Source: a bacterium (GTDB lineage: Bacteria; Patescibacteriota; Minisyncoccia; Minisyncoccales; CG1-02-41-26). From it: a stretch of DNA of 64,000 nt. The notes below the pieces were generated by a model. That model was not told the origin of the DNA and did not search any database. It saw only the letters and a list, made by a program, of their open reading frames with translations. Below are positions 1 to 29,259 of this stretch, one piece after another (position 1 is the stretch's first letter; each line of letters begins with the position of its first letter). Where the stretch lies: contig JAUWWY010000002.1 of assembly GCA_030616605.1 (NCBI GenBank), positions 30,404-94,403 of the forward strand. Reading direction: 5' to 3'. The position numbers and the translations under genes are program-made.

Positions 1-584
1 GCCCCGGTTGATAAAACATTGTAATCAATAGAAGTAATAATCTGGAGAGCATTTAAAGTAGGCATATCGGGATGAACACTAGTAGTGTTGGTAGCCGTGG
101 CTGTTTGGTTATCTTCAGCAATTACATCACAGTCCCAGGTATCGGCGACAGCATCAGTTGGAGTAGCAAAGAACCAGATATCAGCAGTGCAAGTAGCATA
201 GACATTATTACCGTCTATTTCACCTAAATTGCAAGCTATTTGAGTATAACAATCATTACCATCATCATCACAAGATGCCCCAGCCGAAGTGAGATACATG
301 GTAGCAGTAGCATGATCAACAGTTCCACCTCCGTTAGTGTCGGTTATTGTAGCAGTGCAGGTGGCAGTGGTAGTGCCATTTTCAGTTAAGGCAGTTGGAA
401 GGTCTAATTCAACATCACTGACGGTTGGGGTAGCATTTCCTACTTGGACTTGAGAAGTAACAGTACTGGTAGTAACTGCTTTTACTGCTGGTGACCAAAA
501 AGAAGCAAAACCAATTCCAATCATTAAAAAAGCTATACCAAAGAAGATTGTCCAAGATATTGTTCTTTTAGTTTTTTCTGCCAT
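1..584 (-). CDS. Membrane-anchored/secreted surface protein, paralog A (3' part runs off the window; about 194 N-terminal codons present)
   Basis: Absent from the ORF track because it is open at the window edge. The ATG at 584 (minus) reads MAEKTKRTISWTIFFGIAFLMIGIGF... Nt 470-584 are nearly identical to 1510-1638, and nt 1-70 to 1056-1125, of the next gene. Confidence 0.7.
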   Translation of the reverse strand, partial: MAEKTKRTISWTIFFGIAFLMIGIGFASFWSPAVKAVTTSTVTSQVQVGNATPTVSDVELDLPTALTENGTTTATCTATITDTNGGGTVDHATATMYLTSAGASCDDDGNDCYTQIACNLGEIDGNNVYATCTADIWFFATPTDAVADTWDCDVIAEDNQTATATNTTSVHPDMPTLNALQIITSIDYNVLSTG

Positions 585-723
585 TAGTTATCTTTCTAAA
601 ATACAAAAATAATATTTTTATCCGACCTTTTAATTTTATTTAATTATCCATTTATTATAGCAAATATTATAGCAAATAAGAATATTTAAATACAATAAAC
701 AATATTTATCCATAGCACTATAT

Positions 724-1638
724 TTATGAATCTGGTGTTGCCACAATTGAAGTAGTTGAGTTATAAGTACCCGCTGCTGTGCCCGAAGGAACTTTCATTT
801 TCCAGTAGACAGTATCAAATGAGTTAGAAGGACTTTGCGTTGGTTTTATCAAGACAGCCTCGATTTTATCATAACTGGTGGTAGAACAAGAAGTCATACT
901 TTCATAAGGGTTATCAATCAAAGAATACACCTGTTCATCTCCGCCAATAGTGACACCATTGCCAGCTAAAATAAAATCTGTTGAAGAAGCAAGTAAGTCA
1001 AGAGCAGCATTACCAGTTGTTGTCGCAATGGTTGTTTGACTTGCTGAACTGGTTGCCCCGGTTGATAAAATCTCATAATCAATAGAAGAAGTAATCTGGA
1101 GAGCATTTAAAGTTGGCATATCAACAGGGATGATGGTCATACTGCTACCCGTGGCTGCTTGGTTGTCTTCAGCAATTACCTTACAGTTCCATTCGCCTGG
1201 AACAGCAAAGAACCAGATAGGTTCAGTGCAAGTAGCATAGACATTATTACCACTTACATCTCCTAAACTGCAAGCTATTTGGGTATAACAATCATTATCA
1301 TCATCATCACAAGATGCCCCAGCCGAATCGAGGTACATGGTAGCAGTAGCATATTCAACAGTATTACCTCCCTGTAGGTCAATTACGGTAGCAGTGCAGG
1401 TGGCAGTGATAGTACTGTTTTCAGCTAAAGCGGTTGGAAGGTCTAAGTAAACACTGCTGAAAGTTGGGCTATCGTTTCCTACTTCAACCTGAGCAATAAC
1501 AGTATTGGTAGTAACTGCTTTTACTGCTGGTGACCAAAAAGAAAAAGTCCAAAAAGAAGCAAAACCAATTCCAATCATTAAAAAAGCTATACCAAAGAAG
1601 ATTGTCCAAGATATTGTTCTTTTAGTTTTTTCTGGCAT
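724..1638 (-). CDS. Membrane-anchored/secreted Cys-containing surface protein, paralog B
   Basis: ORF 724..1659. The start is moved to the ATG at 1638 (MPEKTKRTISW) by homology to the paralog A start. It has an N-terminal TM/signal segment and the shared module TATCTATV.DL.GG...CY..I.C...YATCT..IWF. Confidence 0.65.
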   Translation of the reverse strand: MPEKTKRTISWTIFFGIAFLMIGIGFASFWTFSFWSPAVKAVTTNTVIAQVEVGNDSPTFSSVYLDLPTALAENSTITATCTATVIDLQGGNTVEYATATMYLDSAGASCDDDDNDCYTQIACSLGDVSGNNVYATCTEPIWFFAVPGEWNCKVIAEDNQAATGSSMTIIPVDMPTLNALQITSSIDYEILSTGATSSASQTTIATTTGNAALDLLASSTDFILAGNGVTIGGDEQVYSLIDNPYESMTSCSTTSYDKIEAVLIKPTQSPSNSFDTVYWKMKVPSGTAAGTYNSTTSIVATPDS

Positions 1639-1687
1639 TCTTATTTTTCTGAAATACAATAATAATCATTTTTTATTTTACCATATT

Positions 1688-3757
1688 TTAGGGGGTGTCT
1701 GCTGTTGCCACAATTGAAGTAGTTGCGTAATAAATACCAAAAGTTTGACCCAAAGGAATCCCCATTTTCCAATAAATAGTATCAGTTGAAGTAGAAGGGT
1801 CGCTGTAGGGTTTATCCAATTCAGTCTCGATTCTCTCCCAACTAGTAGTAGAACAAGAAGTCATACTTTCATAAGCAACATTACTTAAAGAATATGCCTG
1901 TTTATCTCCGGGAATAGTAGTACCATTGCCAACCAAAATAAAATCTGTTGAAGAAGCAAGTAAGTCAAGAGCAGCATTACCAGTAGTAGTAGCAATGGTT
2001 GTTTGACTATCCGTACTGGTTCCCCCGCCTCCCAATTTTCCATAATTAATAGAAGAAATAATAATTACAGCATTAAGAGTATTTAATTCCGGAGGGTCAC
2101 CATCTGTATTGTTGCCAGTAGCTCCTTGGTTGTCTCTAGCAATTACATAGCACTGCCAAGTTTCTCCGGAATAATCGCCACTATCAGTTGGGTCAGCATG
2201 AAACCAAATATCAGCCGTGCAAGTAGCATATTTGTTGTTGCCAACTGGTGGATCCGATAAATCACAGGTTATATCCTGGTAACAATTATTATTATCTTGG
2301 GAGCAAGAAGAAGTTGCTGCCACTCCTGAACGGTAAATAGTGGCTGTAGCAGCAGTAATTTGATCACCCCCATCAAGGTCTTCTATGGTAGCTGTGCAGG
2401 TAGCAGTGGTAGTGCCATTTTCATTAACAGTAATACTTGGATAAGGGATTAAATTAACACTAGGAACTGTCGGGGGATTGTTGGGAATACCAACAGTTTG
2501 CTCATGAAATCGCACATTGCCGTTCGTCTGGGTAGTGTAGGTCAGCTGAATCTTGGAATCGCTATTATAATCTTTCCTCCCTGCAGAGAGATAGGCCAGG
2601 GATTCGCCTGACCCATCAACGATTTCGGTTTCAGACCCGGTCCAATCTATTGTAGTATCATCTGAGGTTTTGTACCAAATATCCTGAGAATCAGAACTTT
2701 TGACATAAAACGCAACGATCTCTCCATCAGTTGCATTATGGCTTAAAGACAATGTATTCACCGCCTCACCAGAGAAAACAGTGTTTTTTGCTCCGAACAC
2801 TGGCGTGGCGCTGGAAAAATCAATTGTCTGGTGAATGAGATTAGTGCCGTCTTTATACAAAACATGGGCATTGGTGCTGTCGTCGCTGACGAGTGAAAAC
2901 ATGCCGTTGGTCATGGTCAAAGCGGTTTCTGTGTCTTCCGAGGAAACAGTTATAGAGGTGTTCCATGTTGCTTTTTTCGTCCTCAATATCGCGGTGGTGT
3001 CCTGCCAGACAATCCCTATTGCATTAATGCCGATATTAACAGCAGCAACATAGTTTATTACAGTTTGATCGGTATCATCAACAGGTTGAGCGCCAGTCCA
3101 GCTGGGCGCATCAGGAGGGGCAGTGGGGTCTGCTGCTGAATCAGCATCAACATACACCTTCCAACTGTCGCCGCTATCTGTTGCGCACACCATCCACACT
3201 CTCCCGCCGGTATCAATCACCACAGCAATATTGTGTCCCTTCGCACAAGTGCCAGCGTCTTGGACAAGTCCCCAGCTAAAGTCGTCATTACCAGTGGTGA
3301 CACTGCCGTGCACATAGTTGGTTTTAGTATTAAATTGCGGGTTAATATGCACTGCGTGCAACGTGGTCCCATCTACAAAAATATCAACGCCGGCTTCATA
3401 ACCAGCTATTAGATCACTAACCCCTGAATCAACATTGACTGTCCACCCTGATATACCAGTTGATGACCACGCGTAGTCAGCATGTTCTCTGGCTCCTCCA
3501 CCGGGCCCATAATAAAAAGTATAGTAATTCTGATTCCCCACAGGGTTGCGGAACGCATAATGGAAGTTTTCGTATCGGGTGGCATCGGTGTTTTCGGTAC
3601 CAACCGTACTAGTAGCGTAAGCGATCTTTGTCTCAGGTGGCACCGGCGGCTTTTTCCAAATCTGCGGCCAACCAGAAAAAATCCAAAAGGCAACCATCAA
3701 AAAAATCACCAGAATAACTAAAGAGTTTTTAAAATTATTCTTTATAATTTTCCCCAT
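1688..3757 (-). CDS. Large surface protein, paralog C. N-terminal TM anchor, central more G+C-rich region with Asp-box-like motifs (DSGDSW, SDDTTIDW), C-terminal module shared with paralogs A and B
   Basis: 689-aa ORF. The C-terminal ~230 aa align by eye with the 724..1638 product (TTATCTATIEDLDGG..., QTTIATTTGNAALDLLASSTDFIL, SMTSCSTTS, IYWKM). Confidence 0.65.
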   Translation of the reverse strand: MGKIIKNNFKNSLVILVIFLMVAFWIFSGWPQIWKKPPVPPETKIAYATSTVGTENTDATRYENFHYAFRNPVGNQNYYTFYYGPGGGAREHADYAWSSTGISGWTVNVDSGVSDLIAGYEAGVDIFVDGTTLHAVHINPQFNTKTNYVHGSVTTGNDDFSWGLVQDAGTCAKGHNIAVVIDTGGRVWMVCATDSGDSWKVYVDADSAADPTAPPDAPSWTGAQPVDDTDQTVINYVAAVNIGINAIGIVWQDTTAILRTKKATWNTSITVSSEDTETALTMTNGMFSLVSDDSTNAHVLYKDGTNLIHQTIDFSSATPVFGAKNTVFSGEAVNTLSLSHNATDGEIVAFYVKSSDSQDIWYKTSDDTTIDWTGSETEIVDGSGESLAYLSAGRKDYNSDSKIQLTYTTQTNGNVRFHEQTVGIPNNPPTVPSVNLIPYPSITVNENGTTTATCTATIEDLDGGDQITAATATIYRSGVAATSSCSQDNNNCYQDITCDLSDPPVGNNKYATCTADIWFHADPTDSGDYSGETWQCYVIARDNQGATGNNTDGDPPELNTLNAVIIISSINYGKLGGGGTSTDSQTTIATTTGNAALDLLASSTDFILVGNGTTIPGDKQAYSLSNVAYESMTSCSTTSWERIETELDKPYSDPSTSTDTIYWKMGIPLGQTFGIYYATTSIVATADTP

Positions 3758-3816: not shown

Positions 3817-4911
3817 TTAAAGGTTAGTTCTTTTTAAGCTCGCTAAGATTCCCAAACCAAGATAAAAAGCCAAGAGTTGGGAGCCACCGTAGCTGACAAA
3901 AGGCAAGGGGATACCGATTATCGGCAAAACCCCAAGAGCCATTCCTATATTTATAAAACTTTGAGAAAGAAGTAAAAAACTGAAGCCAGCAGCAAATAAC
4001 CTGGTAAAATTGTCCTCAGCACTTAGGGCAATTTTCATTATCTGCCAGAAAAGAAAACTGAATAAAAATATTAAAACAAACACCCCTAAAAAACCTGTTT
4101 CTTCAGCAATAGCTGAAAAAATAAAATCAGTCTGGGGTTCTGGTAAAAAACCGTACTGGGCTTGAGAACCTTTGAAAAGTCCCTTTCCCAAAAGGCCACC
4201 CGAGCCTATGGCAATTTTTGACTGATTAATATTCCAGGAAATTCCCTGAGGGTCAACTTGCTGATTTAAAAAGCTCAAAACTCTTTGTTTTTGATAATCT
4301 TTTAACCAAAACTGCCAGGAAAACCCACCAATAATTAAAAAAACTAAAAATAAAATTAAAAAATGACGAAGTTTAATTCCAGAGAAAATAATAATTCCCA
4401 GCCAGACTGAAATCAAAATAAGAGAAGAACCAAGGTCTGGTTGAAATAAAACTAAAAAGAAAGGAATAAGAAGATAAATCCCGGAAAACAGAATTGGTTG
4501 AAACCTTTTAGTTTCAATATGACGAAAGGAAAAATACTTACTTAAAACAACAATTAAGCAGATTACAACAAGCGGTACAGGATCAAAAGAAAAAATTCCT
4601 GCTTTATACCATCCTTTAACTCCTCTTACTTCACTGCCAAATAAAAACAATCCCCCTAAACTCAGTAAACCCAAAAGATAAAAACCCAAAACTAAATAAG
4701 AATTTGTTTTTAAAAATCTTAGGTCAAAAAAACTGAAAAAAATCAGCAAAAAAATACCCAGAGCAAAAAAGGCAATTTGTTTTTTGAAATTAAAAAAATC
4801 CTCTATTCCAAGAGAAGAACTATAAATAGATAAAAGTCCAAAAGAAGTTAGAAGGAAAGCTGGTAAAATTAAAAACCAGTTAAGTTTTTTAAAATAAATT
4901 AAAAAATTCAT
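3817..4911 (-). CDS. FtsW/RodA/SpoVE (SEDS) family peptidoglycan polymerase
   Basis: 364-aa polytopic membrane protein with family-typical motifs (QPDLGS, AEETGF, PFVSYGGS). Confidence 0.85.
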   Translation of the reverse strand: MNFLIYFKKLNWFLILPAFLLTSFGLLSIYSSSLGIEDFFNFKKQIAFFALGIFLLIFFSFFDLRFLKTNSYLVLGFYLLGLLSLGGLFLFGSEVRGVKGWYKAGIFSFDPVPLVVICLIVVLSKYFSFRHIETKRFQPILFSGIYLLIPFFLVLFQPDLGSSLILISVWLGIIIFSGIKLRHFLILFLVFLIIGGFSWQFWLKDYQKQRVLSFLNQQVDPQGISWNINQSKIAIGSGGLLGKGLFKGSQAQYGFLPEPQTDFIFSAIAEETGFLGVFVLIFLFSFLFWQIMKIALSAEDNFTRLFAAGFSFLLLSQSFINIGMALGVLPIIGIPLPFVSYGGSQLLAFYLGLGILASLKRTNL

Positions 4912-4923: not shown

Positions 4924-4941
4924 TCACCGTCCCGACCGGTG
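4924..4941 (-). repeat. REP-like hairpin repeat, copy E (inverted orientation): TCACCGTCCCGACCGGTG
   Basis: Reverse complement of the 18-mer CACCGGTCGGGACGGTGA found four more times within 1.3 kb. It can fold as a CACCG/CGGTG stem. Confidence 0.8.
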
Positions 4942-5685
4942 TTTTTCCTTTTCTTCTGCCTCCTCTAGAGCGAGCTCGGCGAATTCCCTAATTTCTCCCT
5001 TGTACCTTATCCAATTTTCAACAAACTTTTTGCAACCTTGTGGACCATTCATTACCTTTGACAAAAATTCTCTCTCGGTGACCGATGGAAAATTCTTTTT
5101 GCCAATATAATCAGGATAACTTGACCATTTATAATTTTCCAAAAACTTAATGACTTTCTCTGGGTTTTGAATTCCTATTTCTTTCCATTTTGGCTCAATA
5201 AGAGAAATGGGGTTGGCGTGGATATAAACAAATACAACTTTTAATTGGTTATCGTCTTCGATGTGAACCGAAACGAATCTGTTTTGAAAAACATGGCCTT
5301 TGCGATTGTATTTTCTATTGAAATATCCCCCATAACCTCCACCTATCTTTTGCATAAAGTTGGAAATTCCCTCGTCTTTTAGCTGTTTCAACAATAAATG
5401 GATATGATTGGGCATAAGAGAAAAAGTTAAAACTTCAACAATTTTATCCCGTTCATCATTGACACCGGTCGGGACGGTGATGGTTTCTTTGAGGGCTTTT
5501 TTCATTTGGGCACGAACTTTCCTCCGTTCCCTAATCTTTACTAATCTGGCCGTATTAAACTCATAAATGGAGAAAATTCCACGATAATAGTCATCAATAT
5601 CTTTGAAAATTAAATTATCATCAATTGCTCTTAGAGTAACGTGATAAATTTCGCTGTTTGCAAATTGTTGTTCTCTATAAGGCAT
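4924..5685 (-). CDS. REP-associated tyrosine transposase (RAYT; IS200-like Y1/HUH transposase fold)
   Basis: HUH motif MPNHIHLLL and downstream VYIHANP tyrosine motif. The ATG at 5685 is preferred over the GTG at 5697 used in the track. The last five codons plus stop (HRSGR*) are supplied by a REP copy. Confidence 0.75.
   Translation of the reverse strand: MPYREQQFANSEIYHVTLRAIDDNLIFKDIDDYYRGIFSIYEFNTARLVKIRERRKVRAQMKKALKETITVPTGVNDERDKIVEVLTFSLMPNHIHLLLKQLKDEGISNFMQKIGGGYGGYFNRKYNRKGHVFQNRFVSVHIEDDNQLKVVFVYIHANPISLIEPKWKEIGIQNPEKVIKFLENYKWSSYPDYIGKKNFPSVTEREFLSKVMNGPQGCKKFVENWIRYKGEIREFAELALEEAEEKEKHRSGR
5463..5480 (+). repeat. REP-like hairpin repeat, copy A (inside the RAYT coding sequence, in frame as TVPTG)
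   Basis: Exact CACCGGTCGGGACGGTGA. Confidence 0.8.
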
Positions 5686-5694
5686 AAATAGTGT

Positions 5695-5712
5695 CACCGG
5701 TCGGGACGGTGA
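5695..5712 (+). repeat. REP-like hairpin repeat, copy B (between the RAYT start and the giant-gene stop)
   Basis: Exact CACCGGTCGGGACGGTGA. Shares the extended context AATAGTGTCACCGGTCGGGACGGTGATGG with copy C. Confidence 0.8.
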
Positions 5713-5730: not shown

Positions 5731-8700
5731 TTATGGCGTTGGTTCTGGAGTTGGTTCGGGTTCGGGTTCAGGTTCAGGAGTTGGTTCTGGCTCTGGCTCG
5801 GGCGTTGGTTCAGGTTCAGGAGTTGGTTCTGGCTCGGGCGTTGGTTCAGGTTCAGGAGTTGGTTCTGGCTCTGGCTCGGGCGTTGGTTCAGGTTCAGGAG
5901 TTGGTTCTGGCTCTGGAGTTGGAATAGTGTCACCGGTCGGGACGGTGATGGTTGACTCGGTGATTGTGGTTGTAGCCTGTTCTGAATCTATTGAAGAGGT
6001 TTCTGGAGTAGTTGTTGCTTCAGGGCTAGTGGTTTCTTCGGTGGTAGTTGCTGTTTCAGTAGTAGTTGTGTTCGTAGTCGTAGCTTGGGACTCTGTAGTG
6101 TCTCCTGCCGGGGATTCTTCTTCAGGAGTTGTAGAATCTGTGGTGCCACCTGTGGTGTCACCGGTCGGGACGGTGATGGTGGCGGAATCGCAGTCAGCCT
6201 TGACTCTCATTTGTTGACCATTCTCAACCCAACTACACCAAATCTCACCAGTGATTTGGTCAACCATTTCTAATTTATCAATCCGGGCTGTACCAACTAT
6301 TAGTTTCTTAACCTTAGCCACGCCATTTTCAATAATCAGGCCTAACTTTTGCAAACTGTCTTTTACGGCTTCAGTAAAATTGTGAAGCAAGGTTGTTTGT
6401 TCTGAGCTGGAAGTAGTTGTTGCCCCAATTTTTAATTTCAATTCTTCTATTTGATTTTGCTGCTCTTTTATCATCCCCAAAGCCAAACCACCCAAATCAG
6501 TACCAGATATACCCTTATTATCTCCTAAACCAAAAATGGCATAAAAATCCTCGGAGAATGGACTAAAATGTCTCATTGCTGAATCTATATCTTGTTTATA
6601 AGACCATTCCTGAAGAGGCAATTCTTTCAATTTATTGAGTAACTCTTTCCCATCTATTTCCACAAAGTTATGTTTTATTTCTTTACTTGAACTACCCATC
6701 CACTGCCCAGTACCCATAAGTACATTGTCAGCGCTTACCCAAGCACCAAAACTATTTGCCCCAGCATGCCATCTCTGGGCATAGGGCGCTGTATCATCAG
6801 CATGTATTTGCAACATACCAGTAAGCTCTGCCCCACCATTATCCACAATATCTAAATTACCCACAGGACTATCCGTCCCGATGCCGACGTTTCCTGCAGA
6901 TGTGATTCTCATTGCCTCAGTAAGTGTAGGTCCTGCAGTAACAGAAAATGCAAGGTCTACCCAACCATAATCTGTGTCACCAGTTGGTATTGCTTTAATT
7001 TCAGCATATCTTTCAGTAGGAGCATGTGTTGGGGAAAGTCTTATTGCCACAGAATCCTGACCAAAAACCCTGCCAGAAGTTAATTGTAATAAAACTTTCT
7101 CTCCTGCTGTGGTGTCGGAAATCTCTAAAAGACTTGTAGGACTCCCCGTCCCGATGCCGACATTGCCGTCATTTCTCACATAAAAAGCATCGTCGTCTAA
7201 ATCATACTGTGTCCCAGCAGGCAAAGATTCTGTTGCTATGCCTGATGCTCCTTCAACAGGGGTAAAAACTCCCTGAATTTGTGCTGTGCTGAACTTATTA
7301 TACGTATCTACTTGATAAGCATAAATCTTCAATGTTTTTAGTTCTGACGTATCTGAAGTTAATATAGCTTTAATTGGTATTACTCGATAACCTGCTGATT
7401 GTATGGGAATAAGAGTAATATCGGGACTACTTGACATAGTAGCTTGTTGCCTAATTCTAACCATAAACTGCTGGGAAGATATTCTTAACCAAGTCCCTCC
7501 AACAATACTTACTATAAATATACTCTCAGTTTCGGCATATTGAGAAATAAGGTTCGTCTCTGCTATTTGATACCATTTATTATTATCAGTTGAACCAGAC
7601 TCAGCGGTTAGCCAATAGTTTTGCATTTGACCTTTTGATTTTACAAATCCATTTACATCTAACGTATACTCAGGACTATCCGTCCCGATTCCTAAATTGC
7701 CACCAGTGTTAAAATAAGAATCTCCAATGGTATTGAACCATATTGTAGTACCAGTCGCATCGGCCAGAGTCATGGTAGCATGCTTATTTGTTTGCTCCCA
7801 CAATCCCAAAATAGCATTTCCATCGGAATTAAGAATTTGGAATGGGTGAGTATCTGTACCTGAAGATTGCACTGTTAGTCTCGCCCCAGGACTACTCGTC
7901 CCGATGCCGACTTTACCATCTCGTTGTATTCTCATGTGTTCAATATAACCCGGAGCTGCAGCCCTTGAGCCAAATATTAAATTAACCTCATCTTCAGCAG
8001 GTCTTTCAGCATCAATTATAAAATACTCTCCACCCCCTAAATTAAACTTTATAGGAATATGCGAACCAAATGAATCATTAGTATGCTGAAGATAAAGCCA
8101 AGGAGTAGCATCATAAGGAGATTGAGCAGAGTTGTCGTAAGGACGTATTATCTCAAGATACTTTGCCCTTATATTTCCAGAAACTTCTAAAAGTCTAGCA
8201 GGACTACTCGTCCCGATGCCGACTCTCTGATTTCCTGAATCAATATATAAGACAGGGGTTGAACTTGTGCCAAATTGAGCCGAACCATAGACATCCAAAA
8301 GAGATGCAGGACTACTCGTTCCGATGCCGACGTTGCCATTATCATGTATTCTCATGACTTCTGCATTATTCTGCCCAAATACAACAGGAATATCCTCTAT
8401 TGCTCCGATTGCAAAAGTGGTCGCACTCTGGCTCCAAATAGCATTCATATCATTAGTTGAAATTCCAAATAAAGTGCCACCAGTTGAACTACCATAAGAC
8501 CTTACTTGAATATAATTCCCACTTCCAGAATTGAAACTGGATAAGTAACCTGAATAAGAAACATTGTTTGTTTGTGATACTAAGCCTATATCTTCTGCAC
8601 CAGCTCCATATACATGAACCTTATATACCGGCGTCACTGTCCCGATGCCGACTCTGCCGCTACTGTCAATTCTCATCCTCTCTGTGCCAAATGTTTTGAA

Positions 8701-11481
8701 TGTAATTGTGTTTGCCAGGGGGGTGCCAACTCCAAGAATATACATATTGTCTAAATAAGCTATGTTGTCCGCATCAGCATCAACTATTGTTATGATTATT
8801 TGGTCAATAGCGTCTTTATCCGCATCTGCAACCCCAGATATCTCCCAAGTTTCCGTTTGGTAGGTATTGGATGTCGCAACATTTGCCGTATGCTCGGTAA
8901 TTGTCCCTCCAGAATCGTGAATACTTATTTTTATATTACTTCCTGTTCTTAAAGCATAGATGTCATATTTAATCGTGCTCATACCAGACAAATCTATCGT
9001 CGGGCTAACTGTCCTCGTCAAAGTCTCATTTAAACTACTGGTCATTTGTGCTATTCCTTTCAGAGAGTAAGTACCTTGTTGGACAATGGTAGATTCAGAA
9101 TAACATTGCAATGCACTTACACCATGGGAAGGATTTTCGTCTTCAGTGCCATTACCACTATTATAAATAGCTTCAATATCAGCCGTAGAAAGCTTAAAGT
9201 TATAAAGGCGAACATCATCTATATCTCCATCAAATCTTTCGGAACCTCCCCCAAGCTGACCTATAAATCCTTGAGTCCAGTCAAAGCTATTTAAAGCGGT
9301 TACTGAATCTGTGCCATCTACACCTGCATTTATGTAAAGCTTCATATCGGTTCCATCATAAGTAACAACCACATGAGACCATCCAGCAGTAGAAATATCT
9401 GCTGCACTTATAGCGTGGATATATCCGCCACCAAGTTTGTTTGTATAACAATGAAGTTTACTATTTTCAATTCTGAAAAACGTAGTGTTAGAAAACTCAG
9501 GCATCATTACAATCTCGTGTACCCCTGTAATTGTATCTGGATAAATCCAAGCACAAATGCTAAATTTTGTTGCCTGCATATCAAGTTCAGTTAAATTTAC
9601 ATAATCATTGGTTCCATCAAAATCAAACGCACCACCTATTTTACCTGTTGAATGCAAAAGAGAAGTATTTTTTGATGCTACCCCAGTAGATGCTGCCATG
9701 GCATCAGCCACATTGGTATTAGCTGCGTCATCATTTAATTTATAATGATGTAATGGATCAGCAACTTCTCCAGCAGCAGCACTACTCACATAAGCTGCTT
9801 GAGCCGCTGCATCGTTAGCATATTCCATATAATCAAGTTCAGTTGGCGCTGCAGGTGCTGTGAGTGAAATAGTTGTGTCATTGTCAGCATCCTGAAGGGC
9901 AGTCGTTATAATAGAGCCATTTACTTCTAACTTTGCCCCAGGACTATTTGTTCCGATTCCCAATCTATTATTAGTATCATCCCAATAAAGATTAGTATTG
10001 TCCTGGGAAATTAGTCCTGATGAAGTAGAGAAGAGGATTGAACCATTGGTTAATCCTGAAAGAGTCAAATCAGTGGTTACTATTAAGTTAGTGGTGGTAG
10101 CTGTGCTTGTAACAGTAAGATTATTAAAAGTTGGAGAATCAGATGTTCTCAGGTTTTGGTTCATTAGATAAACTTCAGTTGCTCCCTGACCAGTATCAAT
10201 TGTTCCTGCTAAAGTAATATTTCCTGAACCCCAGATATCGCCAGCCACGGTTAAAGGATAAGATGGAGTTGTGGTAGCGATACCTAATCTGGTAATAGTG
10301 GTGGTGGCTAAAGTGGAGGTGGCTTGGACAACCTGAGTACCTGAGACAGCAAGATTGCCACTCATTGAAATATCACCAGTGGTACTAAGATTGCCATTTG
10401 AATTAACAGTTAAATAATTGGTTGTGCCACCAACTCTGAAGGTGTTGGTTAAAGTAACAGGGGAGATAAAATTAGCAGTGGCATAAACTCTCAGTTTGTC
10501 TAAAGAATCAGAACCAAGAGTGGCAGAACCACCAACTCCTAAGTTAGTAATTCCAGCCATACCGGAAACCCCCAAAGAAGCTAAGGTCGCTGCTCCTCCT
10601 ATTTGAATTCCCTGGGAGCCAATATATACTGGAGCGGTTGAAACCTGAGTGGAAGGAGGATGAGTTTGAAGTTTACTGGTTAAAATCTGGAGAGTCAGAA
10701 TATCTTTTTCCCATTCCTGGATTTCGGAAATTTGGGATTTGAGCAGAATCAGGGATTTATCATCAATTGTTTCTATTTCTTTGACAATAACTTCTACCTC
10801 TTTTATTATTTCTTTTTGAGACACTCCTTCTTCTTTTAGTTTTTCAAATCTTTCCTGGAGTTCTCTGAATTGTTCTCTGGTAATAAATTTCTCAGCAATT
10901 AATTTTTCTATTTCTTGTTTTAAAACAAGATCTTCCCTTAAAACAACTTTCTCTTTTCCTTTAAAAATGCTAACTACTTTTTGAGGAACCTGTTTTATTT
11001 TCTGAACCAGTATTTGAATTTGTTTTTTAATTGCTCTTGTATTTTGAGTAACATATTGGCTGACCTGGTCTTTAATAGAGGCAGTATTTTTTTTAATATC
11101 AGAAGTAATTTCTTCTACTTGTTTTACGAAGGAACTGACAACTGGTTCAAAATAGGAATAAGCAAAAATAGTTCCAATAAAAGTCAAAACAAAAACCAGT
11201 GCTATTGCCACTACAATAGTGCGTGGCAGCACTGATTGGTAAAAAGGTTTCTCTATTTTTTCTAATTCTTTTTTCTTCTTTCTCTTGGCTGTCTGATTTT
11301 TATACTCTGTCACCCTCTTCAAATATTCATCTATCCATTCTTTGGTAGTCGTCCAGTTTCTACCAATTTTTACTGCCTTTAGTTTTCCTTGCCTGACTCT
11401 TAAATTCAAATACTCCTGAGAATATCCAGAATATTCTGCTGCTTTTCTAAGGGAGATTTGCTCGGACTTTCCTTCCTGCAT
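5731..11481 (-). CDS. Giant (1916 aa) HTH, TM, coiled-coil, LamG, tail-fibre-like protein with a Peptidase_S74-type intramolecular chaperone domain
   Basis: The N-terminus has an excisionase/MerR-like HTH ([34 protein letters not shown]), followed by one TM helix. The LamG/ConA-like region runs from [10 protein letters not shown] to [11 protein letters not shown]. At least 8 G.VGIGT.SP repeats are typical of tail-fibre proteins. [10 protein letters not shown]...LQEWSYK resembles the S74 chaperone domain. Confidence 0.7.
5734..5925 (-). repeat. Coding tandem repeat (36/42-bp units on a 6-bp base period) encoding a (TPEPEP)n tail
   Basis: Repeated GGCGTTGGTTCAGGTTCAGGAGTTGGTTCTGGCTC(TGGCTC)G units. 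Translates on the minus strand as [14 protein letters not shown]... Confidence 0.9.
5931..5948 (+). repeat. REP-like hairpin repeat, copy C (inside the giant gene, in frame as ITVPTGDT)
   Basis: Exact CACCGGTCGGGACGGTGA. Confidence 0.8.
6159..6176 (+). repeat. REP-like hairpin repeat, copy D (inside the giant gene, in frame as ITVPTGDT)
   Basis: Exact CACCGGTCGGGACGGTGA. Confidence 0.8.
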
Positions 11482-11543
11482 TATCTAATTATCAACCATC
11501 CCATATACCCTTATCAAGCCCCTCCTGTGGATAACTATTTGAT

Positions 11544-11563
11544 ACCAAATAGTACTATTTGGT
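11544..11563. promoter_or_regulatory. Perfect 20-bp palindrome ACCAAATAGTACTATTTGGT upstream of the giant HTH gene (candidate operator)
   Basis: Perfect dyad read directly. It lies 63-82 nt upstream of the ATG at 11481 and 10 nt from a perfect DnaA-box 9-mer (TGTGGATAA, 11526-11534). Confidence 0.4.
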
Positions 11564-11578
11564 AACAAATATATAGTA

Positions 11579-13609
11579 TTACTGCAAAAGTTGGAGAAAG
11601 TTTTTTTCGTTAAGGATTCTAATTCCTAATTTTTTAGCTTCTTCTAATTTTGAACCGGGGTTCTTGCCAACTATTAAAAAATCGGTCTTTTTACTGACTA
11701 AATTTGTTGGATGTCCACCCAATATTCTTATCTTGTTTTCGGCTTGAGCTCTACTCATAGATTTTAAAGTACCGGTTAAGACAAAGGTTTTTCTTTTCAA
11801 TTTCTTGCCGAATTTTTGGGGAGCTAAAATTTTAACTCCTGCCTTTTTTAAATCTTCAATTAGCTTCAAATTTCTCTCTGATTTAAACCATTTAAATATA
11901 GATTGGGAAGCTTGAGGACCAATATCTGGAATCTTTTTAAGTTCTTCTTTTGAGGCGTCTTTTAGTTTTTCTATAGAGCCAAAATATTGAGCAAGAGCAA
12001 TGGCTGTTTCTTCTCCGACATAACGAATTCCAAAACTATAAATAAACCGAGTTAAAGATATTTTTCTACTATTTTCAATAGCTCGAACTAAATTTCTGGC
12101 AGATTTTTCAGCAAATCTTTCCAAAGGAATTAAGTCTCCTTGTTTTAATTCAAAAATATCAGAAGCTCTAGAAATTAAATTCTCATCCATTAAAAGGTCA
12201 ATAATCTTTGGTCCGACTCCAACAATATCAAATGCTTTTTTGGAAACAAAATGAGATAAAATTTCTTTTCTCCGGGCAGAACAATCTGGATTAGGACATC
12301 TCCATACTGCTTCTCCCAAGGGTCGAACTAATTTACTTTTGCAAATTGGACATTTTGTAGGAAATTGGAATCCTTTTTCTCTTCCTGTTCTCAACTCTTT
12401 AAGAACCTTTACTACTGCTGGAATAACGTCTCCGGCTCGCTCGATAATTATTGTATCTCCGATTTTTACCCCCAATCTCTTTAATTGGTCGTGGTTGTGA
12501 AGAGTTGCCCTAGTAATAGTAACTCCCTCCACCTTAACTGGCTCTAAATGGGCTACAGGAGTTAAAGCACCTGTTCTTCCCATTTGAACTTTTATATCTT
12601 TAATTTTTGTGGTAGCTTGCTTGGGAGAAAATTTCAAAGCCCGAATCCCCCGAGGACTTTTACCGGCTACTCCCAGTTTTTGAAACAAGGAATTATTGTC
12701 TACGCTTACCACCACCCCATCAATTTGAAAAGGCAGGACTTCTCTTTTTTTAGCAAGAGCTTGCCAGAAATCTAAAGCTTGAGCTAAATTCTGACAAACT
12801 CTACCTAAGTCAATTTTAAATCCCAAGGCCGATAAAATTTGATGCCCCTGAGAGTGAAATCCTTGACCAAGATTTGCAATTAAATCGTAAGCTAAAAATT
12901 TAAGAGGTCTTTCACTTGCTAACTTAGGATTAAGTTGGCGGATGGAGCCGGCAGCTAAATTCCGGGGATTAGAATAGGTTGACTTCCCTTCTTTTTTACG
13001 TTTCTCATTAAATTTCTCAAAATCTCTTTTTTCCATATAAACTTCGCCCCGAATTTCTATCCTGTCTTTCTCAATTAATTTCTTTAGATTTTTCTTGTTT
13101 TTTAAAAAAGGAATTTTCTGATGAATCTCAAGTTTTAAAGGAATACTTTCTATTGTTTTTAAATTTTGAGTAACATCTTCTCCAGTAATTCCATCTCCCC
13201 GGGTTGCTCCCTGGCTGAAAATTCCGTTTTTGTAAATCAAAGAGATTGCAAAACCATCTATTTTCATCTCAGCAAAATATTGGAATTTCTGACCAGAAAT
13301 TAATTTTTTCAAATAGTTTTCCCAATTTTTCAATTCTTTTTGCTCAAATACATCTTCAATAGAAAGCATGGCTATTCTGTGTCTCTTTTTCTTGAATTCG
13401 TCTAATGGTTTGCCAGCTACTCTCTGGGTAGGCGAATCTGAAGTTATAAATTCCGGGTATCTCTGTTCTAATTTGTAAAGCTCGTGTTTCAAAGAATCTA
13501 ATGCTTCCTGGGAAATCTCTTGCTTATTACGGACATGATATAAATAACGGTGATAGTTAATCACCTTTTTTAGTTTTTCTATCCTTTTTTGAATCTCAGA
13601 TTTGTTCAT
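11579..13609 (-). CDS. ligA: NAD-dependent DNA ligase
   Basis: 676 aa. KxDG adenylation motif (EMKIDGFAISL), Zn-finger Cys4 (CPICKS...CPNPDC), HhH and BRCT-like C-terminus. Confidence 0.95.
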   Translation of the reverse strand: MNKSEIQKRIEKLKKVINYHRYLYHVRNKQEISQEALDSLKHELYKLEQRYPEFITSDSPTQRVAGKPLDEFKKKRHRIAMLSIEDVFEQKELKNWENYLKKLISGQKFQYFAEMKIDGFAISLIYKNGIFSQGATRGDGITGEDVTQNLKTIESIPLKLEIHQKIPFLKNKKNLKKLIEKDRIEIRGEVYMEKRDFEKFNEKRKKEGKSTYSNPRNLAAGSIRQLNPKLASERPLKFLAYDLIANLGQGFHSQGHQILSALGFKIDLGRVCQNLAQALDFWQALAKKREVLPFQIDGVVVSVDNNSLFQKLGVAGKSPRGIRALKFSPKQATTKIKDIKVQMGRTGALTPVAHLEPVKVEGVTITRATLHNHDQLKRLGVKIGDTIIIERAGDVIPAVVKVLKELRTGREKGFQFPTKCPICKSKLVRPLGEAVWRCPNPDCSARRKEILSHFVSKKAFDIVGVGPKIIDLLMDENLISRASDIFELKQGDLIPLERFAEKSARNLVRAIENSRKISLTRFIYSFGIRYVGEETAIALAQYFGSIEKLKDASKEELKKIPDIGPQASQSIFKWFKSERNLKLIEDLKKAGVKILAPQKFGKKLKRKTFVLTGTLKSMSRAQAENKIRILGGHPTNLVSKKTDFLIVGKNPGSKLEEAKKLGIRILNEKNFLQLLQ

Positions 13610-15067: not shown

Positions 15068-15838
15068 TTATTCTATTTCTATTCTCCCGGCCGAATTTAT
15101 TTTTATAATCTTCTCATCTTCTCCTAAAACAAGGATAATTTCAGCTTCTTCCCTCCAATCCTCTCCATTTATAAAAGTGATTGGGTTAGGAGGAGAAAAA
15201 ACAATGTTTAAAGCATTTGAGACCGAGGGTGATATGCTTTGAATTTGAACTCCTTTTTCTAAATTCACCTCTCTTAAAACTTTGTCATTTGCTTGAATAT
15301 AACTTTGGTCTTTATTACAGTCAGCAAAAAGAAGATAAGAAGTTGGTGAAGAAACTACGTGAAAATAAACGCCAAAATTATGAGTTTCTCCGCCAGCACA
15401 ACTTACTTCTCCAGCTCCCATTGCCATCTCCTGGGTTTCTCTTAAATCTTGTGTTAATTGATAAGCTACTCTTTGAAGGGCTAATTTTTTTTCCTCTCCT
15501 GTTTTACCTAAAAATAAAACAGAAGAGAGAATACCAATGATTATTATGGTCACCAAAAGTTCAACTAAAGTGAACCCAGCACCATTTTTAAAGCTATTTC
15601 GTGCACGCCTCTTAAACTCTTTAACGGCGTTGCCATGACCCTTCAACCTTTTCTCTCTTTCTCTGGCGTCTTGTTCTGATTGATATGCCTCATAAGATAC
15701 AAGTCGCCACGGCCTATATCGTCTGGTCGATATTTCTAAACCATTATTATGTTCATGCAACCTTCTACGAAGATCATTTGTAGATCCTATGTATACTTGC
15801 TTATATTTTGTACTTTCTAATAGATATACGTAAAACAT
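15068..15838 (-). CDS. GIY-YIG nuclease domain (aa 1-~80) fused in frame to a FimT/GspH-like minor prepilin (G88|F89TLVELLVTIIIIGIL...)
   Basis: The N-terminus is MFYVYLLESTKYKQVYIGSTNDLRRRLHEHN...YEAY...REKRLK (GIY-YIG). It is followed by NGAG|FTLVELL, the prepilin cleavage motif, and a pseudopilin body. Confidence 0.8.
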   Translation of the reverse strand: MFYVYLLESTKYKQVYIGSTNDLRRRLHEHNNGLEISTRRYRPWRLVSYEAYQSEQDAREREKRLKGHGNAVKEFKRRARNSFKNGAGFTLVELLVTIIIIGILSSVLFLGKTGEEKKLALQRVAYQLTQDLRETQEMAMGAGEVSCAGGETHNFGVYFHVVSSPTSYLLFADCNKDQSYIQANDKVLREVNLEKGVQIQSISPSVSNALNIVFSPPNPITFINGEDWREEAEIILVLGEDEKIIKINSAGRIEIE

Positions 15839-25657: not shown

Positions 25658-25703
25658 TATTAATTAAAATCGCCCAGCTAATTGGGCTCTTTATTTACTG
25701 TGA

Positions 25704-25787
25704 CGGAGGGTGCAGGATTCGAACCTGCGAGGGATTTCTCCCACCGATTTTCAAGACCGGCGCTTTAAACCACTCAGCCAACCCTCC
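25704..25787 (-). tRNA. tRNA-Ser (anticodon UGA)
   Basis: Hand-folded cloverleaf. Acceptor GGAGGGT/ACCCTCC, anticodon loop CTTGAAA, long variable arm, T-arm GCAGGTTCGAATCCTGC. Confidence 0.85.
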
Positions 25788-25795
25788 AAGAAAAG

Positions 25796-26005
25796 GCGGA
25801 GGAGGTGGGACTCGGCTACAAGTAAATTTCCTGACGGAAATTTCTCGCAGCCCGCCCCTCGCGGTGCTCGCCTTGCCCCTCGCTACGCTCAGAACAAACT
25901 CGCACATCGCTGCGGTCTTCTCGTCCCAACGAAAGGCAATTAATTGCCTTTCTCCTCTCCGGCACAAAATTTCAACCTCACCAAAGGAGAAGTGAAATTT
26001 TATGT
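25796..26005 (-). other. G+C-rich ~190-nt structured insert ending with a 19-nt duplicate of the tRNA-Ser(GCU) 3' end
   Basis: GCGGAGGAGGTGGGACTCG occurs at 25796-25814 and again at 26006-26024. Internal perfect hairpins are GAAAGGCAATTAATTGCCTTTC and GAAATTTCC-GTCA-GGAAATTTC. Confidence 0.6.
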
Positions 26006-26006
26006 G

Positions 26007-26095
26007 CGGAGGAGGTGGGACTCGAACCCACAAGCGGCTTTTTAGACCGCGATAGGTTAGCAACCTATTCTCGTGACCAATTTGAGTACTCCTCC
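26007..26095 (-). tRNA. tRNA-Ser (anticodon GCU)
   Basis: Acceptor GGAGGAG/CTCCTCC, anticodon loop TTGCTAA, long variable arm, T-arm GTGGGTTCGAGTCCCAC. Confidence 0.85.
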
Positions 26096-26203
26096 AATAT
26101 TTTTAAATTTTACCACTTAAATTCCAAGAAATCAACCAAAACTCTTGACATCTGTTTTTATTTGATTAGACTAACGATAATATCAACATTTTTAAAATTT
26201 TAT

Positions 26204-26707
26204 ATGTTGAACCCCAAAAATTTAAACGGCCTGTGTTTCTTGATTTTGATAGTAATAATAACATTTTCTTTAATTTTTCTGCTGGAAAAAAAAGTGATGG
26301 CAGATGAATTTTCAGTTGCAACAGAAAAAGAGCTTTCAGATTTACCAATTTTTGAAGAAACTTCTTTCCTAACTTTAAACCTCCCTCCTTGCTACGAAGA
26401 TTCTGATATAAAGCGAAAGGTTAAAGTAATGGTCACTGGCTACTCCTCTTCGGTTTGGGAAACTCAAGGCGACCCTTTTATTACCGCTTCTGGTACCCGA
26501 GTTAAAGAAGGAATTATTGCTAATAATCTCTTGCCTTTTAAAACAGAAATAAGATTGCCGGAAATTTCTGGCGATAAAATTTTTGTAGTTGAAGACAGAA
26601 TGCATTCAAGAAAGGGCCCTTACCATATTGATATCTGGTTTCCTTCCCGTGAAGAAGCCCTGGCTTTTGGAGCAAAATTAACTGAAATGGAAATCCTCAG
26701 CAATTAA
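26204..26707 (+). CDS. Secreted 3D-domain (MltA/RlpA-like double-psi barrel) protein, putative cell-wall-binding or lytic
   Basis: Start moved to MLNPKN, because the track ORF start overlaps a tRNA. Has a signal/TM segment, then VTGYSS...TASG...DRM...IDIW, typical of 3D domains. Confidence 0.6.
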   Translation: MLNPKNLNGLCFLILIVIITFSLIFLLEKKVMADEFSVATEKELSDLPIFEETSFLTLNLPPCYEDSDIKRKVKVMVTGYSSSVWETQGDPFITASGTRVKEGIIANNLLPFKTEIRLPEISGDKIFVVEDRMHSRKGPYHIDIWFPSREEALAFGAKLTEMEILSN

Positions 26708-26764
26708 TAATTATTTAAAATTTGGTAACAAAAAACCCGCAATCAAAAGTTGCGGGTTTTTTAG

Positions 26765-26849
26765 TGCCGCGGGTGGGACTCGAACCCACACGGAGAAAAC
26801 CTCCAAGTGATTTTAAGTCACTCCTGTAAACCAATTCCAGCACCGCGGC
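26765..26849 (-). tRNA. tRNA-Leu (anticodon UAA)
   Basis: Acceptor GCCGCGG/CCGCGGC, anticodon loop CTTAAAA, long variable arm. Confidence 0.85.
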
Positions 26850-26856
26850 AAATCTA

Positions 26857-26928
26857 AGGCCAGGAGGGGATTTGCACCCCTGTAAAACGGTTTTGCAGAC
26901 CGTTCCCGAACTACTTGGGTACCTGGCC
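26857..26928 (-). tRNA. tRNA-Cys (anticodon GCA)
   Basis: Acceptor GGCCAGG/CCTGGCC, anticodon loop CTGCAAA. Confidence 0.85.
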
Positions 26929-26971
26929 ACACTTTTATTAAACCCTATTTTTCGCGATTTTTCAACCCTTA

Positions 26972-28462: not shown

Positions 28463-28590
28463 AGTAACGATATTACTTTAATTTAGTCTTTATTTCAAGT
28501 AATTAAGCTATTGTTATCTCTCTGGTTATGTGGCAGTATTTAGAATAAATATTATTTTTTAGCACCTTTCAAATAAAATAAGGAGAGAAC

Positions 28591-28833
28591 ATGAGCAATC
28601 TGGAGACCGACAAAAAACTATCTTGGGGGTATTGTCTATTTGTAGGAGTCTGCACATTGATAGCTACTCAGAGCATTGGCCTGAGTTTAGCTGTTTCCTT
28701 TATAATACTTGCTCCAGCATTAACATACTACCAAGGTTCAATCCCTGTTTTGAGAAAAAAGACTTATGTTCTATTGAGTCTTTTAATAGGAATAGTTTTA
28801 ATCATCTTAAAGCTCGGAAAACTAATTCCCTAA
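28591..28833 (+). CDS. Small two/three-TM membrane protein, function unknown
   Basis: 80-aa ORF preceded by AAGGAGAG 6 nt upstream and followed by a terminator. Confidence 0.5.
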   Translation: MSNLETDKKLSWGYCLFVGVCTLIATQSIGLSLAVSFIILAPALTYYQGSIPVLRKKTYVLLSLLIGIVLIILKLGKLIP

Positions 28834-28839
28834 ACAAAA

Positions 28840-28875
28840 AGCGCTGATTCTAAAAAGTTCAGTGCTTTTTATTTT
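28840..28875 (+). terminator. Rho-independent terminator
   Basis: Stem AGCGCTGA/TCAGTGCT (one G-U pair) followed by TTTTTATTTT. Confidence 0.65.
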
Positions 28876-28909
28876 AGCTAACTAGCCATTCCGTAGCCTT
28901 GGCAAAGAA

Positions 28910-28999
28910 TGGCGGAGGGGGTGAGATTCGAACTCACGGTGGTCTTGCGACTACAATGGTTTTCGAAACCATCCCTTTAAACCGCTCAGGCACCCCTCC
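28910..28999 (-). tRNA. tRNA-Ser (anticodon CGA), CCA encoded
   Basis: Acceptor GGAGGGG/CCCCTCC, anticodon loop TTCGAAA, long variable arm, 3' GCCA. Confidence 0.85.
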
Positions 29000-29023
29000 A
29001 ATAGAAATTAGAAAATTTATTTT

Positions 29024-29094: not shown

Positions 29095-29110
29095 GGCTTT
29101 TAATTTTCTA

Positions 29111-29258: not shown

Positions 29259-29259
29259 C

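Follow-up and report, generated by a model that had tools for sequence, protein, structure and literature searches.

Introduction

The closest characterised relatives of the protein described here are the 'mosaic adhesive trimeric' (MAT) proteins of Bdellovibrio, which form trimeric beta-helix fibres with exchangeable tips on the surface of the predator (Caulton et al. 2024, PMC10769870). Thirteen of the 21 MAT proteins end in a Peptidase_S74 (S74) domain with an SDxxxK motif, their capping loop has the form V-G-G/N-pi-x-x-P-x-x-x-L, their N-terminus consists of a signal peptide and an invariant beta-rich domain of ~130 residues, one member binds prey glycans, and Bd3182 measures 550 A for ~900 residues (PMC10769870). 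We report on a giant gene at 5731..11481, minus strand, of a 64,000-nucleotide stretch of DNA (hereafter the window) from a member of the ultrasmall Patescibacteria (contig JAUWWY010000002.1 of assembly GCA_030616605.1, positions 30,404 to 94,403). The reading that we favour, and hold with moderate confidence, is that its product is a type II membrane-anchored adhesive fibre, which stands on a DNA-binding-type anchor peculiar to the lineage and whose promoter is of the leaderless type and probably responsive to DnaA.

The likeness to MAT proteins such as Bd3182 and Bd2133, known here from sequence, extends to what would be a cell-surface rather than a virion fibre, to the capping loop (VGIGTxxPxxxL in this case), to an S74 domain with an S-x4-K dyad and to a mosaic distal part; the organism that is the source of MAT likewise lives on other bacteria. 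The differences are nevertheless considerable. The window protein carries a helix-turn-helix (HTH) domain that would lie in the cytoplasm, a transmembrane (TM) helix and a helical stalk in place of the MAT N-terminus, is about twice as long, has a LamG and other globular domains in mid-fibre and continues beyond S74 into a further module and a T/P/E-rich tail; its dyad stands in the context SSKEIK as compared to SDxxxK, and it comes from a different phylum, in which no outer membrane is expected. Since the MAT N-terminus is absent, we class the protein as MAT-like and not as a member of MAT.

Phage fibres and tailspikes (K1F endosialidase 3gw6, T5 pb1, phi29 gp12 3gud and the S16 gp37-type 6f45) have in common with it the S74/ICA domain, matches to tail-fibre PHROGs, an N-terminal base and a C-terminal tip, but the window protein is predicted to stand on a membrane by a TM helix and not on a baseplate, is encoded at a chromosomal housekeeping position and possesses the HTH. 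To our knowledge, MyRF represents the only known class of proteins whose chain contains both a DNA-binding domain and an S74/ICA domain in addition to a TM helix, and the MyRF ICA domain is the best structural match to our model of the window S74. In MyRF, however, the order is DNA-binding domain, ICA, TM, such that ICA cleavage frees a trimeric DNA-binding domain, which is Ndt80-like and not of the MerR/Xis type as here. The order in the window protein is HTH (residues 8-57), TM (88-110), S74 (1598-1695), which would place S74 on the other side of the membrane, and hence its cleavage cannot free the HTH. RacA, whose winged HTH is a structural neighbour of the window HTH, tethers DNA to the envelope, but RacA and Noc differ from the window protein in having neither TM helix nor ectodomain. 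Our literature searches retrieved no account of a protein in which a MerR/Xis-type HTH is joined to a TM anchor, of an HTH-TM family, or of Patescibacteria promoters with DnaA boxes. The anchor family appears to be undescribed, as do its promoter and the chromosomal positions that it occupies, and the fibre itself is of a known kind (MAT, phage S74 fibres) in a new form.

Results

Gene and N-terminal module

The gene is a single uninterrupted open reading frame (ORF) of 1916 codons plus stop with its ATG at 11481, and no in-frame ATG occurs at residues 2-140, where only TTG and GTG codons without convincing ribosome-binding sites are found. The spacer between ligA and the gene contains one promoter-like site only, a sigma70-like promoter at 11488..11517 on the minus strand, composed of TTGATA (11512-11517), 18 nucleotides and GATAAT (11488-11493), with 10 of 12 consensus matches. 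From the end of the -10 element to the ATG there are 6 nucleotides, a gap that is repeated in eight homologous loci, and from this geometry, which is that of a leaderless-type mRNA, the transcript is predicted to begin at the annotated ATG. With the start fixed in this way by the promoter, the HTH cannot be a separate ORF. The original prediction had proposed one polypeptide with HTH, TM helix and ectodomain, and had named a start downstream of the HTH, or domain searches without result, as what would overturn it; the start lies upstream of the HTH, and the searches returned the domains described below. The G+C content of the gene is 0.40 as compared to 0.35 for the window, which fits the G/T/S/A-rich composition of the encoded protein. 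No paralogue was found in the window, and the HTH motif occurs there once; a look-up of the exact protein in public assemblies returned no record.

Residues 8-57 (11311..11460, minus strand, as are all parts of the gene) correspond to a winged HTH of the MerR/excisionase type. An AlphaFold2 (AF2) model of the N-terminal module, built with 25 homologues, has a predicted local distance difference test score (pLDDT) of 89 overall and above 95 over residues 11-60, and consists of a strand followed by two helices, with a beta-hairpin as the wing. In Foldseek its neighbours are Pukovnik Xis (4j2n), RdfS (8dgl), BldC (6ama), RacA (5i44), TraN (4p0z) and the MerR regulators NmlR, SoxR and CueR, matched at a root-mean-square deviation of 1.4-1.7 A over ~48 residues (probability ~1), and every one of them belongs to a DNA-binding class. 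The excisionase profile phrog_1840 matches at E=3e-5. Pfam HTH_17 (PF12728) reaches 16.1 bits on the whole protein and 22.7 on the isolated segment against a cutoff of 27, and TIGR01764 (excise) 16.6 bits against 28.8; precomputed PF12728 matches are present on several close homologues. The excisionase/MerR-type HTH that had been placed at residues ~10-55 was thus borne out by fold despite the low Pfam score, and on the strength of the model the segment is a true DNA-binding-type fold that would be expected to bind DNA.

The HTH is followed by a basic juxtamembrane linker (residues 58-87, 11221..11310) containing KRKKKK and, at residues 64-78, the K-rich run that had been noticed previously; the model continues it as one helix over residues 47-77. 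Residues 88-110 (11152..11220) form the single TM helix that had also been foreseen, a predicted signal-anchor with the N-terminus inside, which has a Kyte-Doolittle peak of 2.86 and is the sole hydrophobic segment of the protein. Beyond it lies a charged helical stalk of partial coiled-coil character (residues 111-275, 10657..11151), within the base that comprises residues 1-525. The coiled coil in this region was the weakest element of the original prediction: its helical and charged nature stood, but a continuous coiled coil was not confirmed by a crude heptad score, which is high only at ~115-142 and 202-231. We also observed a motif PP(E/K/A)NLP(V/I) between HTH and TM in many family members (P0001, P0009, P0019, P0023, P0048, P0053, P0071, P0075, P0079 and P0087), which is absent from the window protein.

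Ectodomain

The part predicted to lie outside begins with a G/T/S-rich beta 'neck' (residues 276-600, 9682..10656) that includes the first LGIGT capping motif at residue 507 and matches phrog_5906 and, over residues 454-544, Bdellovibrio Bd2133. Next comes a LamG/ConA-like lectin domain (residues 622-769, 9175..9618), which matches 4qvs and for which Laminin_G_3 is matched at E=2e-26 over profile positions 1-150 of 151 (93.2 bits against a cutoff of 27.6). A second domain at residues 790-915 (8737..9114) is a probable jelly-roll; its weak match to the galactose-binding-like PF21253 (E=0.024) is under the cutoff, and the domain is common to protein P0046 only. MAT/tail-fibre-like beta-helix repeats with capping-loop motifs occupy residues 916-1285 (7627..8736), an inserted domain residues 1286-1430 (7192..7626), without a Pfam match and covered only by long low-identity alignments to other fibres, and further beta-helix repeats residues 1431-1597 (6691..7191), which by analogy with MAT Bd3182 (PMC10769870) are predicted to be the mature tip after S74 cleavage.

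In total there are nine capping-loop motifs, eight of the form [VL]GIGT..P...L and one LGVGT, also visible as an 8-copy DNA repeat family. Single-sequence phmmer searches with the repeat region return the Bdellovibrio structures 8ond (Bd2133, 1e-5), 8ojn (8e-5) and 8oml, and the tail-fibre profiles phrog_9942 and phrog_18345 match at 2e-29 and 1e-20, respectively. These matches mark the ectodomain as a candidate tail-fibre- or MAT-like adhesin.

The S74 domain, a putative intramolecular chaperone and autoprotease, spans residues 1598-1695 (6397..6690). Pfam gives 21.3 bits on the whole protein and 25.4 on the isolated segment, with a cutoff of 22. A single-sequence search of the PDB with the isolated segment returned nothing significant, and the matches come from a profile of homologous S74 segments, which finds 6f45, 8jov, the MyRF ICA (7dc3), T5 8hqz and phi29 3gud (5e-14 to 6e-6). 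S1598, K1603 and N1605 lie in invariant alignment columns, with the Ser-x4-Lys dyad at the start of the domain in the context SSKEIKHN. The AF2 model is of moderate confidence (pLDDT 65, core 70-89), and its top Foldseek matches are the MyRF ICA (probability 1.0), K1F 3gw6 and phi29 3gud. Autocleavage at S1598 and trimerisation would be expected by analogy with these proteins. The expectations of a LamG domain, of eight G.VGIGT.SP-type repeats and of an S74-type chaperone, together with the suggestion of a candidate adhesin, were accordingly well founded.

S74 is followed by a conserved module with two Cys residues (1696-1768, 6178..6396), common to ~11 homologues at up to 45% identity, and by a low-complexity tail rich in T, P and E (1769-1916, 5734..6177), recognised from its composition and DNA repeats, with PEPEPT repeats. 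The post-S74 module is found also in some giants in which S74 was not detected; cleavage would release it along with the chaperone.

The HTH-TM family

The HTH-TM arrangement is by no means peculiar to the window. With residues 1-164 as query we retrieved 40 short proteins in which the same HTH is followed by a TM helix, some with a tandem double HTH, and a full-length search returned 69 giants. At least 25 of the latter (1,100-3,300 residues) have the HTH at residues 25-40 and the TM at 80-180, and in others the fibre repeats are preceded by an ordinary N-terminal signal anchor. As this order is repeated in no fewer than 25 giants and in over 100 shorter homologues, it can be neither chance nor an artefact of the start codon. 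An exhaustive profile search yielded 3,413 clusters at 50% identity (E<=1e-3), 579 of them at E<=1e-30; lengths range from 133 to 6,890 residues among the clusters listed, with complete members down to 129 residues at genomic loci. The best 80 genomic loci all belong to Patescibacteria (Nealsonbacteria, Paceibacterota, Parcubacteria, Wildermuth-, Gribaldo- and Torokbacteria, Minisyncoccales), and several genomes contribute more than one paralogue.

What is conserved in this family is the inner part. The HTH core alignment has 18 invariant columns, including R28, R30, Q31, K33, K35, K38 and R41, and the HTH is nearly invariant among paralogues with unrelated ectodomains. Within the giants, residues 1 to ~525 form a base common to ~35-40 homologues. 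Of the distal modules (LamG, the domain at 790-915, the inserted domain, S74 and the module behind it), each is found in only a few relatives. Across 158 members the K+R content of the N-terminal flank of the TM exceeds that of the C-terminal flank in 104 and is below it in 19, the N-segment has a net charge of +8.9, and a second TM occurs in none, which supports a type II single-pass topology with the N-terminus in and the C-terminus out; the placement of the HTH inside and of the fibre outside, as originally envisaged, agrees with this.

At the lower end of the size range are complete members of 129-134 residues (L034 4354, L055 3946 and L076 4980), with ~40 residues outside, and others of 190 residues (L058, L065), and some of the minimal members stand in tandem with a larger HTH-TM gene. 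The existence of complete members that are little but HTH and TM indicates that the module does more than carry an ectodomain and serves some function by itself. The original prediction had offered, as an alternative, that the HTH might be a recurrent 'anchor', and the 3,413 clusters in which the module carries very different ectodomains support this strongly. A subfamily of ~280 residues (P0009, P0011, P0017, P0024, P0025, P0035 and P0039) has a conserved small ectodomain ending ...SGIIVPVF......KYLYIMVPV, with no Pfam assignment.

One homologue, P0043 (1937 residues; L001, 10191-12113), has genes for bAvd and a reverse transcriptase directly after it, in the arrangement of a diversity-generating retroelement (DGR), and is the sole homologue so found; some HTH-TM members or their neighbours may thus be diversified by DGRs. 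In the window, no pair of repeats resembling a template and a variable repeat involves the giant gene, and tblastn with the reverse transcriptase and Avd of L001 gave no match, so that the giant was rejected as a DGR target.

Promoter elements

At 11526..11534 (minus strand), 8 nucleotides 5' of the -35 element, lies TTATCCACA (inside AGTTATCCACAGG), here termed Box A, a perfect copy of the canonical DnaA box. It belongs to a promoter layout that recurs in the family: (A)GTTATCCACAG(TTT), 7-11 nucleotides (mode 9; 26/35 promoters), TTGAC(A), ~17 nucleotides and an A/T-rich -10. As controls we used 172 genes with an intergenic region of at least 60 nucleotides. The relaxed box TTWTNCACA, in forward orientation and within 150 nucleotides upstream, was found for 39 of 80 family genes as compared to eight controls (p=6e-16), and the exact 9-mer for 27 as compared to four. 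The extended 11-mer GTTATCCACAG is present in 10 of 67 family promoters, that of the window included, where 0.002 would be expected by chance, and is found twice in the mnmG-mioC (oriC) region of E. coli.

A second element, Box B (ATCGGATA), occurs in 29 of the 80 family upstream regions and in five of the 172 controls (p=4e-12). It takes the forms ATCGGATA and TATCCGAT between the -35 element and the ATG (L008, L013, L017, L023, L037, L040 and others) and is sometimes the 12-bp palindrome TCGGATATCCGA; its sequences can also be given as TATCGGATAAGC / TCGGATATCCGA. An unbiased 8-mer enrichment recovers both Box A and Box B.

With regard to the factor that might recognise Box A, the dnaA loci of related Patescibacteria (n=80) contain 19 exact boxes in their flanks (~100 kb in all) as compared to none within the dnaA coding sequences (99 kb), and one-mismatch boxes cluster downstream of dnaA, up to seven per 600 nucleotides, as in a typical oriC. 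This enrichment, together with the oriC-like clusters, indicates that the DnaA of this clade uses the canonical box, and we regard DnaA as the most likely binder of Box A, a conclusion from sequence that we consider rather probable. The family HTH is another possibility, given that the box is about ten times denser before family genes than around dnaA.

The window dnaA (62132-63505, plus strand) has very AT-rich flanks (61252-62131 and 63506-64000, G+C content 0.25 and 0.17). These contain no perfect Box A, only the variant TTATCCCCA, twice (62024 and 63585), the former copy sitting in an inverted repeat CCCCAAT...ATTGGGG.

That Box A is exclusive to HTH genes was rejected: the HTH-less S74 fibre of L089 has an exact Box A at -53, and the HTH-less fibre of L086 has the variant TTATCCCCA at the same promoter position. 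The window has other exact or near-exact boxes, which lie before the divergent pair LysM-M23 peptidase / ksgA, the surface-protein ORF 1688-3757 (TTTTCCACA at -52) and the first giant associated with a type IV secretion system (T4SS) (TGTGGATAG, 32 nucleotides 5' of the start).

Between the ligA stop and Box A there is also a perfect 22-bp palindrome, TACCAAATAGTACTATTTGGTA (11543..11564), for which the original prediction had suggested that binding by the HTH be examined. It is absent upstream of five homologues, which speaks against its being an operator; it folds at -15.6 kcal/mol (z=-2.7) with no U-tail, and is possibly the end of the ligA transcript.

Genomic position

The window is part of a Patescibacteria chromosome, with ligA, pilins, PilD, PilC, PilT, PilB, PilM, IF-2 and NusA, a tRNA cluster, a T4SS-like cluster and dnaA. 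The giant gene lies between ligA upstream (11579..13609) and an IS200-like Y1 transposase gene (4924-5697), which is followed by the SEDS gene ftsW/rodA (3817..4911), all on the minus strand. At 85 family loci ftsW/rodA (54) and ligA (47) are found directly upstream on the same strand, with ftsE-ftsX instead in 10; in 41 cases analysed the family gene starts 57-690 nucleotides past ftsW, and the ligA identities across these loci are only 50-70%. The genes at the ftsW position encode from 129 to more than 1,800 residues, such that this site combines a fixed position and a fixed base with a hypervariable outside part. The window order, ligA, giant, IS200-like gene, ftsW, is a rearranged form of this conserved ligA-ftsW-[HTH-TM] position, and in the closest relative, L006, the family gene also directly follows ligA.

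Several further features of the window are of note. The IS200-like Y1 transposase gene recurs near ligA-ftsW in L027, L032, L047 and L061 at 30-35% identity, a distribution that points to a resident and possibly domesticated element and not to one inserted recently. Near 30 kb (~25700-30100), ~32 kb from dnaA, 12 clustered tRNA genes mark the point at which the cumulative GC skew is lowest and gene orientation flips, which suggests either that the origin lies away from dnaA or that there has been a large inversion. Within the type IV pilin cluster, an ORF at 15068-15838 (minus strand) has a prepilin-type N-methylation motif at residues 85-109 behind an N-terminal GIY-YIG nuclease domain (1-71). 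The region 1-3757 (minus strand) contains surface-protein-like, membrane-anchored ORFs at 724-1659 and 1688-3757, without Pfam matches, which are composed of repeated modules of ~1 kb at 64-82% identity. The T4SS-like cluster at 40850-60083 (plus strand) has TrbL/VirB6-like, PrgI-like and VirB4/TraG-like ATPase genes and also encodes giants of 1671 and 1489 residues and a 569-residue protein, with T4SS-pilin-like N-termini.

Discussion

We propose that the giant gene encodes a single-pass, N-in/C-out protein of the Patescibacteria cell whose ectodomain of ~1,800 residues is most likely a trimeric, phage-tail-fibre-like adhesive fibre. From the membrane outward this fibre would comprise the helical stalk, a beta-helix with VGxGTxxPxxxL capping loops, domains of a carbohydrate-binding type (the LamG domain with the probable second jelly-roll), and the C-terminal S74, which by analogy would drive folding of the trimer and then cut itself off at S1598, the T/P/E-rich tail leaving with it. 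The lectin-type domains and the beta-helix tip would be presented to other cells or surfaces on a fibre which, extrapolating from Bd3182, may be tens of nanometres long. The fibre would be mounted on a base cassette of family promoter, winged HTH, basic linker, TM and stalk, which is common to thousands of Patescibacteria proteins with unrelated ectodomains. Most likely the HTH has a single target common to all members, probably DNA held at the membrane, and would not act as a gene-specific, ToxR-like regulator. The DnaA box one helical turn 5' of the -35 element probably couples transcription to DnaA.

Some observations weigh against this proposal or sit uneasily with it. The architecture, folds, family, synteny and promoter elements are results of the present analysis, while autocleavage, trimer formation, adhesion, DNA binding and control by DnaA are inferred; for trimers, cleavage and exposure at the surface the models are the MAT and phage proteins. 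The N-terminal domain that defines MAT (signal peptide and ~130-residue beta-rich domain) is absent here. The Pfam HTH_17 score of the window sequence is under the cutoff, and the coiled-coil character of the stalk is weak by our crude test. Box B, the second family-specific element, is not accounted for and is degenerate in the window promoter, and since the flanks of the window dnaA hold no perfect Box A, the case for DnaA binding at Box A draws on relatives and on E. coli. Lastly, the conserved place beside ftsW or ftsEX hints at a link to the division machinery for which an adhesin does not account.

The original prediction suggested a ToxR-like, membrane-tethered regulator that senses surface contact, and a Notch-like action may be considered alongside it. 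Binding to a host surface would alter the oligomeric state of the HTH or trigger its proteolytic release, and the HTH would then act at Box A and/or Box B to reprogramme the expression of surface proteins. Such a scheme would find a natural place in the biology of Patescibacteria, in which the regulation of the attached versus the swarmer state was called completely unknown in a recent perspective (PMC11665869). The topology places a DNA-binding fold with invariant basic residues in the cytoplasm, and the promoters of the very genes that encode it are marked by two cis-elements of high specificity, a classic signature of autoregulation; Box A also stands before a few other envelope genes (LysM-M23, a PEPE-rich membrane protein, other fibres). 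ToxR, CadC, TcpP and VtrA are likewise N-in proteins with a winged HTH in the cytoplasm, one TM helix and a domain beyond the membrane, but theirs is an OmpR/PhoB-type HTH with a small periplasmic sensor and often a partner (ToxS, VtrC), as compared to an invariant MerR/Xis-type HTH and an 1,800-residue fibre here, and neither Pfam nor NCBIfam finds an OmpR/PhoB-type Trans_reg_C domain in the window protein. Paralogues whose ectodomains are unrelated have a nearly identical HTH, so that separate operators for individual members are precluded and no signal-specific output is to be expected, while the complete members of 129-134 residues have almost no ectodomain with which to sense. Box A is moreover the canonical DnaA box, flanks included, clustered at dnaA/oriC in this clade, for which DnaA is the simpler binder, and it also precedes fibres without an HTH. 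As to release, S74 would cut outside and could not free the HTH; a gene for a site-2 protease (M50) does lie ~700 nucleotides upstream of one homologue, but this is 1 of 85 loci, and regulated intramembrane proteolysis was rejected on that count. We thus consider contact sensing unlikely. A related thought, to which we give little credence, is that HTH-TM proteins are membrane-tethered DnaA-box binders whose nearly invariant HTH would recognise the GTTATCCACAG sites that DnaA uses, in their own promoters and possibly at oriC, such that contact of the ectodomain with a host surface, cell wall or division septum would be coupled to initiation of replication and surface-gene expression. The DNA-binding fold, the roughly tenfold density of Box A before family genes and the position of the family beside division genes leave some room for it, and if it is true, a single protein would directly connect the attachment of episymbiotic Patescibacteria to a host with their cell cycle.

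The same position beside division genes raises the question of whether the HTH might bind protein and not DNA, as an adaptor that couples the fibre and other ectodomains to FtsW/RodA and FtsEX and thereby positions surface structures at the pole or septum. HTH, basic linker, single TM and extracellular part are also the layout of RodZ, which belongs to the Rod/SEDS system; an invariant HTH would fit a single conserved protein partner, the minimal members suggest that the module acts in its own right, and the place directly downstream of ftsW/rodA (54/85) or ftsE-ftsX (10/85) is kept where ligA identities have fallen to 50-70%. RodZ, however, has an XRE-type HTH that binds MreB, whereas this one is of the MerR/Xis type and every structural neighbour found is a DNA binder; Pfam and NCBIfam searches gave no similarity to RodZ or DUF4115, and there is no sequence relationship between the two. 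Family genes have strong promoters of their own and are not embedded in an ftsW operon, and streamlined genomes can keep gene order without functional coupling, so that such an adaptor seems to us unlikely. More trivially, an excisionase-like ORF could have been joined to the fibre by a wrong start or a frameshift, or the gene could be a prophage tail-fibre gene. The excisionase-type HTH, the tail-fibre PHROG matches and S74 are all typical of phage, an IS200-like gene adjoins the giant, and its G+C content exceeds that of the window. Against this, the frame is uninterrupted, lacks an in-frame ATG in residues 2-140 and has its start set by the promoter at the annotated ATG; the same fusion is found in hundreds of independent genomes; the context is one of housekeeping (ligA, ftsW, pilus genes) with no other phage genes in the vicinity; virion fibres are not known to have TM anchors; and the G+C content fits the composition. 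Both artefact and prophage are effectively excluded.

A large part of bacterial diversity falls within the Patescibacteria, which live mostly attached to other microbes. Both their host recognition and the switch between attached and free states have been described as unknown (PMC11665869). An adhesive fibre on a DNA-binding-type anchor, as we favour, would make this gene a concrete candidate host-recognition fibre, one most closely related, among characterised proteins, to the fibres by which Bdellovibrio recognises its prey, and the family to which it belongs would wire a DNA-binding-type domain through the membrane to highly variable surface structures. The 17-residue HTH signature followed by a TM helix provides a simple handle for finding surface proteins in these genomes. 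Our findings also raise the hypotheses that expression of the surface proteome may be coupled to DnaA, that the HTH may tether DNA to the membrane or signal across it, and that ectodomains may be swapped like cassettes on a fixed base.

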